A DNA stretch of 64,000 bases from the NCBI GenBank assembly GCA_963817635.1, contig CAWFPR010000013.1, positions 156,740-220,739 of the forward strand, written 5' to 3'. Below are positions 59,151-64,000 of the stretch, one piece after another. The DNA is from an uncultured Acidobacteriota bacterium (GTDB lineage Bacteria; Acidobacteriota; Vicinamibacteria; Vicinamibacterales; 2-12-FULL-66-21). A program made the translations under genes and the position numbers. The notes below the pieces were generated by a model, which saw nothing but the letters and a program-made list of their open reading frames with translations, had not been told where the DNA came from and ran no database searches. Numbering within the stretch: the first letter of the stretch is position 1; every line of letters begins with the position of its first letter.

Positions 59151-59242
59151 CCCCACGCCGGGTTTTCGTCAGAATCGCCAGCAGGCGCAAGCCGGATTCC
59201 CGGCGTAGGCGTTGAAATCCTCAGCAATCGTGCGGCCGGGGC

Positions 59243-59258
59243 TGGCAGTCGGCTTGCT
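59243..59258 (+). promoter_or_regulatory. sigma-54 promoter candidate upstream of the sensor kinase
   Basis: TGGCAGtcggcTTGCT matches TGGCAC-N5-TTGCW with exact spacing. The ATG at 59278 is only about 10 nt from the predicted start site. Confidence 0.55.
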
Positions 59259-59277
59259 CTGAGCCATCACGACTCTC

Positions 59278-60927
59278 ATGCACACTCTGAAGATCCCCTG
59301 GTGGAACCGCCTCGGGGTCCGGCTGGCCGTATCGATTGCGCTCGTCAGCATCATCACACTCAGCGTGTTCCTGTTCCTGGTCGTCCGCAGCCAGACGGCG
59401 CATCTGATGGACCAGGCCCGCCGCAGCGCGGCCATCGTCAACGACACGATCACGAGCAGCATCGAGCACGACATGCTGCACGACCGGCGCGAGGATGCCT
59501 ACAAGATCATGGGCAAAATCGCGCAGCAGGACCAGGTCGAACGGCTCCGGCTGTTCGATGCGGTCGGCCGGATTCGCTATTCGAAAGACGAAGCCGAAAT
59601 CGGCGTCATCCCGGACATCAAGGCCGAGTCGTGCTCTCCGTGCCACGGGTCCGGCCGGTCCCAGCTGCCGTTGTCGGTCGCGGATCGGACGCATGTCTCG
59701 GTCCGCAACGGGCGCCACGTGCTCGGCGCCGTGACGCCGATCTACAACCAGCCGGCCTGCTCGACGGCGAGCTGCCACGTGCATCCGCCCGCGCAGCGCG
59801 TGGTCGGCCTCGTGGAGCTTGGGCTGCAGCTCGAGTCGATCGATCAGGAGAGCGAGACGCTTGCGCCGCAGCACGATGGGCCTGACGCTGCTCGCGACGC
59901 TGACGCTGGGCATCCTGACGTTCGCGTTCACGCGCCGGCTCGTGATCGACCCGGTGCGGGGGCTGGTCGCCGCAACCAAGCGTGTGCGTGCCGGCAAGCT
60001 CGACGAGCACCTGCCGGTCAGCGGTCTGGGTGAGATCGGCGCGCTCGAGGAGTCGTTCAACGAAATGGAGCGGGCGCTCGCGACCGCGCGGGCCGAGCGC
60101 AACGAGCTGTTGCAGGGGCTCGAGCAGCAGGTGCGCGAGCGCACCGAAGCGCTCGAACGCGCCCAGGCCCAGCTGATCCAGACCGAGAAACTGTCCTCGC
60201 TCGGCAAGCTGTCGGCCTCGATCGCGCACGAAATCAACAACCCACTCGCCGGCATCCTCACGACCGCGAAGCTGCTCATCCGGACGATCAACGAACAGCC
60301 GCGCGAATCCGGCGTCCGCCGGGACGATTCGGATGCTCAAGCTCGTGCAGCGCGAGACCGAGCGCTGCTCGGCCATCGTGCGCAACCTGCTCGGATTCGC
60401 GCGCGAGCGGGCACTGACGCTGACCGACGCCGACGTCGACCGCCGCGCTCGAAGAGGCGCTCTTCCTGGTCGCCAACCAGTTCGCGCTGCTCGGCATTCA
60501 GCTCGATCGCGACCTCCAGCCGGTGCCTCCAATCCGGGCCGACTTCGGCCAGTTGCGCCAGGCGTTCGCCAACATCGTCATCAACGCCTGCGACGCGATG
60601 CCCAAGGGCGGCACGCTGCGCGTGCATTCCCGGTTCATCGAGGCAGAAGGGGTCGTTGTCGTGGAAATCGGGGACACCGGCGTGGGCATTCCGCCCGAAC
60701 AGCTGACGAAGGTGCTCGACCCGTTCTTCACGACGAAGGAAAAAGGGACGGGACTCGGGCTCTCGGTCGTGTACGGCGTGGTCGAGCGGCATGGCGGCCG
60801 GCTGCTGATCGACAGTACGCCGGGTGCCGGGACCACTGTGACGATCCGGTTGCCGCTCTCGGGTGCCGAGATGGGCCGGGTCGAGGCGGCACCCGCGCCG
60901 TCGGGTAGCGTGCATGGCGCCGCGTGA
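59278..60927 (+). pseudogene. sensor histidine kinase (periplasmic CXXCH-containing domain, HAMP, HisKA, HATPase_c), three frame switches
   Basis: TM plus periplasmic domain with CSPCH and CSTASCH; switch near 59850. TM2 + HAMP ([33 protein letters not shown]), H-box [19 protein letters not shown]; switch near 60325. [22 protein letters not shown]; switch near 60432. [48 protein letters not shown]. Confidence 0.8.
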
Positions 60928-61531
60928 GGCCGTCCAGGCCCCGACCCGAGGGATCGCGGTGTGGTGGATTGGCGAGGGAGCGTTCGAGCCGGATTTGCTC
61001 GGCGTCGTCTGCGAGCGCCTGGTGGCGGAGTTCGGGTGTGACGTGAGGCTCGTGGACGGGCCGACGCGGCCCGCCGGCACCCGCGATCCGCGGCGCGGGC
61101 AGCACTCGTCGCGCGCGGTGCTGACCTGGCTGCTCTCGCAGGTGCCCGCCGGAGAGCGGGTGCTCGGGATTACGGACGTGGATCTCTTCATCCCGATCCT
61201 GACGTTCGTCTTCGGCGAGGCACAACTCGAGGGGACCGCCGCCGTCGTGTCGGTGGCCCGTCTGGTGGACCACGCCGATCGCCGGCGTACGGCGTTGCGC
61301 CTGGCGACCGAATCGGTGCACGAGCTGGGCCACACGTTCGGGCTCGTGCACTGCGGTGCGATTGAGGGGACGGGTCGCCATGCCGCCCCCTGCGTGATGT
61401 CACGCTCGGCGAGCGTGCGGACGGTCGACGAGAAGAGCCTGCGGCTCTGCCCGGCCTGTCGCGCGAGGTATCTCACGTTTCAGCAGGATGGATCACATGT
61501 CTATCGCCAGCACCAGGATACTGATCGTTGA
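60914..61531 (+). CDS. archaemetzincin-like zinc metallopeptidase (M54-like)
   Basis: HELGHTFGLVHC..(12 aa)..CVMS..(16 aa)..CPAC fits the archaemetzincin signature HExxHxxGx3C..CxM..CxxC, with an insertion between the first two cysteines. It overlaps the kinase stop and the activator start. Confidence 0.65.
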   Translation: MAPREAVQAPTRGIAVWWIGEGAFEPDLLGVVCERLVAEFGCDVRLVDGPTRPAGTRDPRRGQHSSRAVLTWLLSQVPAGERVLGITDVDLFIPILTFVFGEAQLEGTAAVVSVARLVDHADRRRTALRLATESVHELGHTFGLVHCGAIEGTGRHAAPCVMSRSASVRTVDEKSLRLCPACRARYLTFQQDGSHVYRQHQDTDR

Positions 61532-62849
61532 CGACGAAGAAATCGTGCGCGAGTCGCTCAGCGGCTGGCTCGAGAAGGACGGGTATACCGTCGCGAGCGC
61601 CGAGGACGGACCGACCGCGCTCGTGAAACTGGCCAACGACACGTGGTCGATTCTGCTCGTCGACATGAAAATGCCGGGGATGGACGGGCTCCAGGTGCTG
61701 GCCGAGGCGCGGAAGCTGCAGCCATCGGCGACGGTCGTGATCATGACGGCCTATGCGACCGTCGAGACCGCCGTCAGCGCGATGAAGATCGGGGCCTACG
61801 ACTACCTCGTGAAGCCCTTCGACCCCGAGGAGCTCACGCTGATGATCCAGAAGATCGTCAAGCAGGATGAGCTCGTGCGGGAGAACGAAACGCTGCGCCG
61901 CGCGCTCAAGCGCGACTATCACTTCCGGGATCTGATCAGCAAGAGCAGCGTCATGCAGACGGTGTTCGACCTCGCGCGCACGGCTGCGCGCAGCCAGTCC
62001 ACGATCCTGGTCCTGGGGGAGAGCGGCACCGGCAAGGAACTGCTGGCCCGGGCGGTCCACGCGGAGAGCCCGCGGGCCGCCGCGCCGTTCGTCGCCGTGT
62101 CGTGCGCGGCGCTCACCGAGACGCTGCTCGAGTCGGAGCTCTTCGGCCACGAGAAGGGCGCGTTCACCGGCGCGTCTCAACGCCGCCGCGGCACGTTCGA
62201 GACGGCGCAGGGGGGCACGCTGTTTCTCGACGAAATCGGCGACATCAGTCAGAAGCTCCAGGTGGACCTGCTCCGCGTGCTCGAAACCCGGAAGTTCTGC
62301 CGCGTCGGGGGCAACGAGCCGATCACCGTCGATGTCCGGATCGTGGCCGCCACCAACAAGGATCTCCAGAAGGCCGTGGCCGCCGGGGAGTTCCGCGACG
62401 ACCTGTTCTACCGTCTGAACGTCATTCCCATCACCCTGCCGCCGCTGCGCGACCGCCGCGAGGACATCCCGCTGCTCGTCGAGCACTTCCTGGATCGCAT
62501 GTCGGCGGAGCTCGGACGCAAGTGCGACGGCATCTCGCGCGACGCGATGGCGATGCTCATGTCCTACCCGTTCCCGGGCAACGTCCGCGAGCTGCGCAAC
62601 ATCGTCGAGCGCGCGATGGTCTGTGCGTCGGGGCCGATCCTCCAGGTGGTCGACTTCGGGATCGCGGAGGCTACGGCGGAGGCCGCCGCGCCCGCGTCGC
62701 TCGAGGACGTCGAGCGGCGCCACATCGCGGCGATTCTCGAGCACTGCGGCGGGAACGTGTCGCAGGCCGCCCGCATCCTCGAAATCGATCGCGTAACGCT
62801 CTACAACAAGATCAAGAAGTACTCGCTCCGCGCGCCGGCGAGTACCTAG
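61488..62849 (+). CDS. sigma-54-dependent response regulator (NtrC/AtoC family)
   Basis: Receiver ([20 protein letters not shown]), AAA+ sigma-54 interaction domain ([46 protein letters not shown]-like [10 protein letters not shown]), Fis-type HTH ([24 protein letters not shown]). Confidence 0.95.
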
Positions 62850-63069: not shown

Positions 63070-63142
63070 CCCTCGAAAGCCGCGTTTCCGGAGTCTTCCT
63101 CGTAACCATAGGCCGATCAACCACTTGAAGCGCGCGCCCGAT

Positions 63143-63158
63143 GTGGCGCGACCGTTGC
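63143..63158 (+). promoter_or_regulatory. sigma-54 promoter candidate upstream of the Cys-rich ORF / HybA-like operon
   Basis: TGGCGCgaccgTTGCC matches TGGCAC-N5-TTGC spacing exactly. It lies 75-190 nt downstream of the repeat cluster and about 80 nt upstream of ATG 63238. The leader contains the hairpin ccccgcgg-N9-ccgcgggg. Confidence 0.65.
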
Positions 63159-63237
63159 CATACAGAAAGGCGAGTCCGCTACCGCCCCGCGGACGCAAAC
63201 GCCGCGGGGCTTCGGCGAGACGGAAATGGATCGACAC

Positions 63238-63562
63238 CATGGCCTGTCCGTACCTCAAGGAAGTCGTGATGCTCTTCTGCGATGCCTACTGCATCAAGAA
63301 GATGCTTCCGCTGGATCGCATCGCGACCGCGAATCCGTGCCTCGGGGAGTTCGGCAACTGCCCGCTGTTCCAGGAGGTCATGGCGCGCCTTGCGGCGGGC
63401 AACGCGACCGCCCCGACGGCGCCGGTCGTCCTTCCCGCGCACGTCTCCACGATGGCCCGAAAGGAAGGCTCCCAGATGATCCTCGCGCTTCCACTCTCAC
63501 TCGTTGCGCTGGTGGCGGTCGTCACCAGCCTGGTGCTCTCGCATCGCGCGATCGCGCGGTGA
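63238..63562 (+). CDS. small Cys-rich protein with C-terminal transmembrane anchor, hypothetical
   Basis: MACPYLKEVVMLFCDAYCIKKMLPLDRIATANPCLGEFGNCPLFQEV.. (five Cys in the first 41 aa), then an A/P linker and the TM helix ILALPLSLVALVAVVTSLVL. Only the last 108 codons of ORF 62102-63562 look coding. Confidence 0.55.
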
Positions 63563-63571
63563 GGACCGATC

Positions 63572-64000
63572 ATGAAACTCAGTCGCCGGACATTCTTCAA
63601 GGTAAACGTCGCCGGGGCCGCGGCCCTGGCGGCGGGGGCGCCGCAGTCGGTTGCGGCCGCGTCCTTCGCCGCCAACCCGCACGCCCGCGGCGTTCTGGTC
63701 GATACCACCCGCTGCGTTGGCTGCCGCGCGTGTGAAGCGGCCTGCAGCGAAGCCAATACCCTGGCCGAACCGGCCGTCCCTGGTGACGACCGCGTGTTCG
63801 ACTCGACGCGAGACACCGATCAGTACCACTACACCGTCGTCAACCGCTTCGAGGGCGGTGGTGCGGCGGACGCACGCTTCGTGAAGAAGCAGTGCATGCA
63901 CTGCCTGGAACCGGCCTGCGTCTCGGCTTGTCCGGCGCGCGCGCTGGAGAAGACGCCTGACGGCCCGGTCACCTACAACGGCAACCACTGTCTCGGGTGC
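63572..64000 (+). CDS. Tat-exported 4Fe-4S ferredoxin-type subunit (HybA/NrfC/DmsB-like), 3' end outside window
   Basis: My own translation of frame 2 from ATG 63572: [22 protein letters not shown] (twin-arginine signal), [51 protein letters not shown] (Fe-S cluster CxxCxxCxxxC motifs). The ORF is open to the window end. Confidence 0.8.

Follow-up and report, generated by a model that had tools for sequence, protein, structure and literature searches.

The last genes of a 64,000-nucleotide stretch of DNA from an uncultured Acidobacteriota bacterium (contig CAWFPR010000013.1, positions 156,740 to 220,739; hereafter the window) raise the question of whether they form a regulatory circuit that is complete in itself, and of what this circuit controls. 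A prediction made from the sequence alone (the original prediction) had described the region from 59211 to 64000 as a self-contained sigma-54 circuit, in which a sensor kinase, an archaemetzincin and an NtrC-type activator would act through two sigma-54 promoters and enhancer repeats on a Cys-rich open reading frame (ORF) and an Fe-S subunit exported by twin-arginine translocation (Tat). Our results verify every one of these elements, and comparative data support their function. The region very probably holds a complete, self-contained sigma-54 two-component circuit, which would be part of a conserved module of about ten genes.

On the plus strand, the gene order is a LysE-type exporter (58530-59150), the kinase (59278-60927), the archaemetzincin (60914-61531), the activator (61497-62849), a 389-nt intergenic region, the Cys-rich ORF and the Fe-S gene (63572-64000), with domain assignments confirmed using Pfam. 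The three regulatory genes overlap as predicted, the 3′ end of the kinase gene (60927) running 14 nt past the protease start (60914) and that of the protease gene (61531) 35 nt past the activator start (61497). We compared this arrangement with a base of 70 related loci; the scan of genome collections yielded 64 loci, nearly all from metagenome-assembled genomes of Vicinamibacterales or other Acidobacteriota. A syntenic contig (L001), with DNA 95.7% identical to the window, served as proxy for the sequence past 64000. The triad of histidine kinase (HK), archaemetzincin (M54) and activator (NtrC) is found in this order in 47/66 related loci, and genes for an Fe-S subunit, an NrfD-like subunit and two GcvH-like proteins lie downstream in 57/66. 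The full locus order is HK-M54-NtrC then Cys4-FeS-NrfD-GcvH-c7-GcvH, where Cys4 stands for the Cys-rich protein.

The intergenic region contains P2, a -24/-12 element of sequence TGGCGCGACCGTTGCC (TGGCGC-N5-TTGCC) at 63144-63159 (+), supported by motif scan and by conservation. It scores 9/11 against TGGCAC-N5-TTGCW, with the GG and GC doublets 10 nt apart; the second sigma-54 promoter of the original prediction therefore exists and is conserved, although it lies one base away from the position first given (63143-63158). A TGGC-N7-TTGC element scoring at least 8/11 was found upstream of the Cys4 gene in 66/67 sequences, mostly 22-35 nt before the ATG, and elements of this kind also precede the Cys4 genes of the distant low-GC loci L062, L067, L068, L069 and L071. 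As to background, a comparison that the original prediction had proposed, a score of at least 9 was reached in only 3.7% of random control windows of 300 nt drawn from these loci.

Upstream of P2 we found three upstream activator sites (UAS) on the plus strand, at the positions where enhancer-type repeats had been proposed. UAS1 (GTTGAATTCCTGAAC, 62954-62968), centred at about -209 from the inferred P2 start, differs from GTTGA-N5-TCAAC by at most one mismatch; UAS2 (GGCGAATTTCTCAAC, 62976-62990), recognized by comparison of loci, has two mismatches, lies 22 bp from UAS1 and is centred at about -187; and UAS3 (GTTGAGTTCTTCAAC, 63053-63067), found by scan and conservation, has perfect palindrome arms and is centred at about -110. 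At one mismatch or fewer, the window holds five matches to GTTGA-N5-TCAAC against 0.87 expected, and none of 100 shuffles reaches five. The relevant ones start at 59211, 62954 and 63053. Conservation of the repeats, which the original prediction had named as a check, is positional: across loci the palindromes fall into two groups by their distance from the -24 element, one at 100-120 nt and one at 180-230 nt, the latter with about two sites per locus, and the 100-119 nt bin holds 53 sites across 66 loci. Any site at one mismatch or fewer is found in only about 4% of controls. The motif derived across loci is (C/T)GTTGA-N5-TCAAC(A). Two other one-mismatch matches are found elsewhere in the window, at 623-637 and 30544-30558 (+).

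Other elements of the same region fared unevenly. The palindrome TTTGCTCAGCAAA, which had also been noted, is present at 63007-63019, but its palindromic form is not conserved: it is lost even in L001, where the sequence reads ATTTCCTCAGCAAAT, and only the core CTCAGCAAA, which resembles the right arm of the activator site, is kept in close relatives (L001, L002, L007). An IHF-like site, GATCAACCACTTG, lies within an A/T-rich spacer at 63115-63127 (+), about -49, and has one mismatch to the consensus WATCAANNNNTTR. When the loci were scanned with this consensus at two mismatches or fewer, a site was found between the proximal palindrome and the promoter in 47/66, compared with 6.8% of controls. 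The predicted leader hairpin was confirmed by folding at 63174-63221 (+), with -39.6 kcal/mol and a z-score of -3.4. Hairpins of differing sequence occupy the same place in L002, L004, L007 and L008 and are followed by a conserved ACGGAAATGGATCGA; the long 80-nt leader of the window is restricted to its clade. In L010 (5716-7655(-)), and in similar gaps of L012, L014, L016 and L017, a CheW-like gene and an extra histidine kinase gene stand in the opposite direction between the activator gene and the Cys4 operon.

The activator (61497-62849 (+)) is, as proposed, an NtrC-type enhancer-binding protein according to Pfam and NCBIfam, with a receiver domain (E-value 4e-31), an AAA+ sigma-54 interaction domain (Sigma54_activat, 3.7e-71) and an HTH_8 domain (1.8e-16). 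The GAFTGA loop, the Walker A motif (GESGTGKE) and the receiver aspartate are legible in its translation. Its scores against NCBIfam equivalogs are all below cut-off (AtoC, the best match, 508 bits, cut-off 714; NtrC 443, cut-off 559; ZraR 416, cut-off 760), as is the score of the kinase against AtoS (223, cut-off 646). The whole resembles systems of the NtrB/NtrC class, and best AtoS/AtoC and ZraS/ZraR, in its HAMP/HisKA/HATPase membrane kinase, its receiver-AAA+(GAFTGA)-HTH_8 activator, its -24/-12 promoter, its upstream palindromic enhancer sites and its IHF-like bend. It differs from AtoS/AtoC and ZraS/ZraR not only in falling under every equivalog cut-off, but also in having two c-haem motifs in the sensor domain, a translationally coupled zinc protease gene between kinase and activator, and a target operon of respiratory type.

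From the elements, domains, conservation and geometry observed, we infer a signal, a protein that binds the palindromes and, further below, a role for the protease and a function for the complex. The kinase would sense the periplasmic redox state or a haem ligand through a PDC/PAS-like domain with two c-haem motifs, and would phosphorylate the NtrC-type activator, which would then oligomerise on the three GTTGA-N5-TCAAC palindromes (about -209, -187 and -110). An IHF-like bend at about -49 would deliver it to the sigma-54 polymerase at P2, which would be opened by ATP hydrolysis. The resulting hairpin-capped mRNA would encode the Cys4 protein, a 28-aa micropeptide and the HmcB-like Tat Fe-S subunit and, past the window, an HmcC/NrfD-like quinone-interacting subunit, a triheme c7 cytochrome and two lysine-less, membrane-anchored GcvH-fold proteins. 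The kinase-archaemetzincin-activator operon is translationally coupled and has a sigma-54 element of its own, P1, with a palindrome at about -51. Since this regulatory logic is that of the textbook, it is trustworthy as annotation. The switch is of a known kind; what is new is the conserved archaemetzincin, the predicted dihaem sensor and the Cys4/GcvH-like partners.

Several observations weigh against such a circuit. The window contains three TGGC-N7-TTGC matches for 1.93 expected, so that the motif count alone is not above chance; two of the three are on the correct strand, in the two intergenic regions. Neither the window nor the loci gave a match to the RpoN box in a regular-expression search, a result that comes from a small sample and says little. 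What ties the palindromes to the adjacent activator is their co-conservation. In other clades the regulators seem to be served by a promoter of sigma-70 type (TTGAGC-N17-TAGAAT), immediately preceded by the palindrome, and in the window the leader of P1 is only about 8 nt long and its palindrome is too near for classical looping. The structural models are of low confidence (pLDDT 53.6 for the Cys4 protein and 58.8 for the kinase sensor domain). Finally, three frameshifts interrupt the kinase ORF in the window sequence itself, and the circuit could hence be dead in the source organism.

To establish what the circuit controls, a point that the original prediction had left blank, the subunits of the complex could be named from the syntenic L001 and from L002. 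In both, the operon runs from the Fe-S subunit (297-299 aa) through an NrfD-family membrane subunit, a GCV_H protein and a triheme c7 cytochrome of 118 aa to a second GCV_H protein, both GCV_H-domain proteins being membrane-anchored. The window itself ends within the first of these genes (63572-64000 (+)), assigned by Pfam and NCBIfam to a Tat-signal Fe-S subunit of HmcB/HybA type, in which a twin-arginine SRRTFFK and 4Fe-4S dicluster domains (Fer4_11 and related) are legible. The predicted twin-arginine signal and ferredoxin character therefore stand, but the protein is closest to HmcB and not to NrfC. Among curated families, the highest scores are those of HmcB (373 bits, cut-off 420) and, for the membrane subunit, HmcC (496 bits, cut-off 550), with HybA/HybB second. 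The likeness to Desulfovibrio Hmc (HmcB/HmcC) and to HybA/HybB of E. coli hydrogenase 2 lies in the pairing of a Tat-exported four-cluster ferredoxin-like subunit with an NrfD-family membrane subunit. In contrast to Hmc, scores are under the equivalog cut-offs and the 16-haem HmcA, HmcE and HmcF are absent from L001 and L002, where no hydrogenase or molybdopterin subunit was found nearby either; and in contrast to both Hmc and Hyb, the partners here are the triheme c7, two GcvH-fold proteins, the Cys4 protein and a micropeptide.

The GcvH-like proteins match the GCV_H family of Pfam with E-values of 1e-20 to 1e-24 and align to solved H proteins in the PDB. The lipoyl-lysine position is not conserved: GcvH1-like proteins mostly have Gly, Ser or Asp there, and in GcvH2-like ones the residue varies. 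We therefore describe them as GcvH-fold proteins and not as H proteins. They share the GCV_H fold with the glycine cleavage H protein and with lipoate-binding proteins; they differ in lacking the lipoyl lysine, in having an N-terminal membrane anchor and a C-terminal extension, and in being fused to a Cys4 domain in other lineages. Literature searches for GcvH together with NrfD or c7, and for Vicinamibacter together with sigma-54 or NrfD, returned nothing relevant, and no publication describing the module was found.

The first gene behind P2 needed to be redrawn. The original prediction had read it as a 108-aa Cys-rich membrane-anchored ORF, and an ORF of 107 aa does exist in the window as read, but it is a frameshift fusion of two genes. 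An extra C at about 63471 removes the stop codon of the Cys4 gene (63239-63479 (+), about 79 aa, with C3, C14, C34 and C41 invariant in the homologue alignment), which results in fusion of the protein to the following peptide MILALPLSLVALVAVVTSLVLSHRAIAR. Homologues of about 75 aa, annotated as hypothetical, come from Acidobacteriota and Vicinamibacterales, and many end in KEGSR, as does that of L001. The peptide corresponds to a 28-aa transmembrane micro-ORF (63476-63562 (+)) that is conserved in relatives, where its ATG overlaps the Cys4 stop (ATGA). It was found in 46/63 sequences having an adjacent Fe-S gene, as a hydrophobic product of 23-40 aa (mostly 24-30), and the Cys4 TGA overlaps its ATG in 41 of the 46. 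Because the micro-ORF is conserved after the Cys4 gene in relatives, the true architecture would be a soluble Cys4 protein and a coupled single-pass membrane micropeptide. The gene calls of L001 list nothing at this position, and the micro-ORF is a small gene that automatic annotation likely misses. An AlphaFold model of the Cys4 protein (pLDDT 53.6) was too poor for a fold search.

A full HMMER scan with a Cys4 profile recovered only 164 cluster representatives. All of the long members tested (10/10) carry one or two Cys4 domains fused to a GCV_H domain, which points to Cys4 and GcvH-fold proteins being functional partners; the recurrent fusion of Cys4 to a lysine-less GcvH fold is a new domain pair. 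One of these proteins, the metagenomic P0344 (363 aa), also has a receiver domain fused to its Cys4 and GcvH-like domains, suggesting that the pair can serve as a phosphorelay output. In distant loci, the same gene set recurs in permuted order. L067 has the archaemetzincin gene directly upstream of a Cys4-GcvH fusion, with CbcBA-like genes divergently transcribed, and in L069 Cys4-GcvH is accompanied by a small ORF, a kinase, a sigma-54 activator and a c3-type cytochrome. In L071 (42% GC), archaemetzincin and a 69-aa membrane peptide come before Cys4x2-GcvH, a GcvH-like protein and an Fe-S subunit; next stand a 404-aa protein (no Pfam match; membrane/NrfD-like solely by its position), a small cytochrome, a kinase in which the haem motifs recur, an activator and, last, a CbcBA-like pair. 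The Cys4 gene of each of these three loci has a sigma-54 element 25-40 nt upstream. Judging from this recurrence in low-GC lineages, the module is apparently older and wider than the Acidobacteriota.

These distant contexts also speak for a different role of the new proteins. The Cys4 and GcvH-fold proteins might not be respiratory subunits but signalling or regulatory accessories of the two-component system, which travel with various cytochrome/quinone modules. Fusion of a receiver to Cys4-GcvH in P0344, the position of Cys4-GcvH genes beside kinase/activator pairs with differing cytochrome partners in L067, L069 and L071, and the lack of the lipoyl lysine in both GcvH-like proteins all agree with this. 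On the other hand, the two GcvH-like genes are found downstream together with those for the Fe-S and NrfD-like subunits in 57/66 loci, typically one on each side of c7, and the membrane anchors of their products fit subunits of a complex. We consider it unlikely that the proteins are accessories of this kind.

The second promoter-level question is whether the regulators are under sigma-54 control themselves. The predicted element TGGCAG-N5-TTGCT (TGGCAGTCGGCTTGCT) is indeed found at 59243-59258 (+), 20 nt before the kinase ATG, with a score of 10/11. A single activator-type palindrome, UAS0 (GTTGAAATCCTCAGC, 59211-59225 (+), one mismatch to GTTGA-N5-TCAAC), has its centre at about -51 relative to the inferred P1 start and is kept in L001 and L002. 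An element scoring at least 9 stands no more than 250 nt ahead of the kinase in 19/48 loci, compared with 3.7% of control windows, and TGGCAG/CGGCAG-N5-TTGCT is held 16-22 nt before the kinase ATG in L001, L002, L003, L011 and L019 while the flanks diverge. A single palindrome also adjoins or overlaps the kinase promoter in several clades. The box from which autoregulation had been suggested is hence present and recurrent. A single site at about -51 is atypical with respect to the usual 80-200 bp of upstream activator sites, which the P2 sites fit, and because it is too near for loop-mediated activation, autoregulation may be activating or repressing. With either sign, the regulator operon is likely autoregulated. 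In L069 and L071 the sigma-54 promoter is followed by the kinase and activator genes in the same orientation, an arrangement that would give positive feedback.

The points raised above against P1 can be assembled into a reading in which only P2 is real. P1 would then be fortuitous or vestigial, the regulators would be expressed from another promoter or by read-through from the LysE-type gene, and the palindrome would be a repressor site. The chance-level count of TGGC-N7-TTGC in the window, the leader of about 8 nt, which is without a Shine-Dalgarno sequence, the palindrome centred at about -51 and the TTGAGC-N17-TAGAAT of other clades, with its palindrome just upstream, are all compatible with it. 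Against it stand the retention of a P1-type element 16-22 nt before the ATG in five loci despite diverging flanks, and its excess over controls. Furthermore, a search for sigma-70-like promoters and intrinsic terminators on the plus strand from 58900 to 64000 detected neither. We give the case for a single promoter a small though appreciable chance, and retain P1 as the probable promoter of the regulator operon. In other loci (L010, L016, L017, L020, L028 and L029) a conserved TGGCAGTTGAATTGCTCTAC lies 133-188 nt upstream of the kinase start and consists of a sigma-54 element and an overlapping activator-type half-palindrome; L006, L014, L027, L033 and L042 keep GTTGAATTG(C/T)TCTAC but without TGGCA.

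The sensor kinase (59278-60927 (+)) was assigned by Pfam and by orthologue alignment as a transmembrane segment, a periplasmic domain with CSPCH and CSTASCH, a second transmembrane segment, HAMP, HisKA and HATPase_c. A periplasmic CxxCH and a Cx4CHxH are invariant in 42/42 kinase orthologues and sit in the roughly 160-aa domain that the two transmembrane segments enclose, which confirms the predicted CXXCH motif and domains. The kinase is not one ORF in the window, where three +1 frameshifts divide it, a feature that the original prediction had not noticed. The sensor domain had no sequence-family match. Its structure model (pLDDT 58.8) finds as fold matches the extracytoplasmic PDC/PAS domains of WalK, CitA, DcuS and DctB, and the haem-containing sensor domain of Geobacter GSU0935, matches that are only suggestive because the model is weak. 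By its two predicted c-haem attachment motifs, the kinase would be a dihaem periplasmic redox or ligand sensor. It resembles the Geobacter haem-c PAS sensors GSU0582/GSU0935 (PDB 3b42) in having a periplasmic PAS/PDC-like domain with CxxCH; it differs from them in having two motifs (CxxCH and Cx4CHxH), and the likeness in fold comes from that same low-confidence model.

The kinase is spread over four frames (59278-60033, 59819-60706, 60333-60908 and 60523-60927) by single-base insertions at 59861, 60302 and 60440 with respect to the intact 547-aa orthologue of L001. One could therefore suppose that the circuit of the window is a decayed remnant, in which the kinase is a true pseudogene, the stop of the Cys4 gene is lost and the switch no longer senses. 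The frameshifts are indeed present in the deposited public sequence, as a 280,344-bp NCBI/ENA contig carries an identical protease and a fragment of 251 aa that matches the first frame at 100% identity, and all five indels with respect to L001 within 58-64 kb are insertions in coding sequence. However, the three +1 insertions together restore the frame, and the translated pieces are about 98% identical to the intact orthologue. An unrelated response-regulator gene next to the circuit is also frameshifted (+1 insertion at 58190), L001 has a frameshift of its own in the activator, and the database has several homologues of the kinase, taken from assemblies of this type, as fragments. Together these cases are consistent with indel errors of assembly, which we take as the more probable cause of the indels in the kinase and the Cys4 region; decay of the circuit appears quite improbable. 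The lesson is one of caution, since frameshifts in this assembly had both created a false membrane-anchored Cys-rich protein and concealed a broken kinase. Just upstream lies a second signalling cluster (56100-58530 (+)), comprising a CHASE8/HAMP kinase, an Hpt protein and a receiver protein as called in L001; it is its receiver gene that the insertion at 58190 breaks.

It is very improbable that the palindromes are bound by a different regulator and not by the adjacent activator: L009, L053 and L056 do carry them without an adjacent kinase/activator pair, and the link to the protein is drawn from sequence, but in number, in spacing and in distance the sites follow the classic pattern of enhancer-binding proteins, and the motif travels with the module into the 42% GC lineage, where GTTGAAAAATTCTAC lies 107 nt upstream of the -24 element of L071.

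The gene between kinase and activator (60914-61531 (+)) encodes, as had been predicted, an archaemetzincin (Peptidase_M54) of 205 aa, an identification that is borne out by Pfam (54 bits, cut-off 24.4) and by the zinc motif; against the NCBIfam subfamily it scores 125.5, below the cut-off of 145. The zinc site HEXXHXXGXXH is present as HELGHTFGLVH. The second metal site of archaemetzincins has been described as CX4CXMX17CXXC (PMC3427221), and comparison with this motif shows that the four cysteines are present but differently spaced, the whole reading HELGHTFGLVHC-X12-CVM-X16-CPAC. The protease thus resembles AmzA-type archaemetzincins (PMC3427221) in having HEXXHXXGXXH followed by four cysteines, and differs in that its acidobacterial copies have a spacing of X12 and not X4; L071 has the canonical spacing. 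The physiological role of the family is not known (PMC3427221). The gene here sits in a conserved bacterial neighbourhood, and this placement is a testable context for the protease family. Since its gene is directly upstream of the Cys4-GcvH fusion in L067 and heads the module in L071, the archaemetzincin would be part of the module itself and not specifically of the signalling pair. A literature search for archaemetzincin together with sigma-54 gave nothing relevant.

The best experimental analogue of the circuit appears to be found in Geobacter sulfurreducens, where BccR, a receiver-type sigma-54 activator, turns on the quinone-linked cytochrome operon cbcBA as redox potential falls (10.1101/2021.04.15.440034). 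At its head, behind a sigma-54 promoter, this operon has genes for two hypothetical proteins (10.1101/2021.04.15.440034). Both systems have a sigma-54 activator that controls, or here would control, a quinone-linked cytochrome operon, and CbcBA-like genes adjoin the module in L067 and L071; they differ in that HmcB/HmcC-like subunits and c7 are found here, and not a dihaem cytochrome b with a heptahaem cytochrome c. The neighbouring genes in L067 (1602-4252(-)) and L071 (16017-17697(-)) encode a dihaem cytochrome b (Ni_hydr_CYTB) and a multihaem cytochrome c. GSU0597 and GSU3489 of G. sulfurreducens might be counterparts of the Cys4-GcvH-like protein and the small membrane peptide. Among the names of the Cys4 cluster members, no Geobacter member was shown.

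Taken together, the window could show one end of a respiratory or redox-relay module that crosses phyla, is undescribed and has its own dihaem-sensor kinase and sigma-54 activator. Its other parts would be the Cys4 protein, the membrane micropeptide, the two lysine-less GcvH-fold proteins, the HmcBC-like subunits, a small multihaem cytochrome and the archaemetzincin. In this joint reading, the GcvH-fold/Cys4 pair would handle electrons or sulfur as a new cytoplasmic unit seated on an NrfD-type membrane subunit, the archaemetzincin would process or mature a partner in the module, and the two hypothetical proteins that head Geobacter cbcBA may be the same pair. As a whole this reading is possible if somewhat doubtful; were it true, it would provide the first physiological role for bacterial archaemetzincins. 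The defined promoter, the predicted binding motif and the predicted sensor offer a handle on an uncharacterised gene set of the Vicinamibacterales, abundant and uncultured soil Acidobacteriota.

The remainder of the window yielded a few further observations. The third TGGC-N7-TTGC match, at 12950-12964(-), was rejected as a chance occurrence: its neighbours on either side are plus-strand genes, one for a dehydratase and one for a ChaN haem-binding protein, and no family match was obtained for the sole minus-strand ORF in that place, so that the motif has no credible downstream gene. An Rfam scan gave no match in 59-64 kb, and its single match in the window is a SAM riboswitch (RF00162, 80 bits) at 56860-56963(-), directly 5′ of a homoserine dehydrogenase gene (55526-56800, minus strand), which in L001 is followed by an aspartate kinase-type gene. 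Finally, a 913-aa ORF at 10068-12809(+) joins a short-chain dehydrogenase domain to altronate/galactarate dehydratase domains, as either a frameshift fusion or a genuine one.

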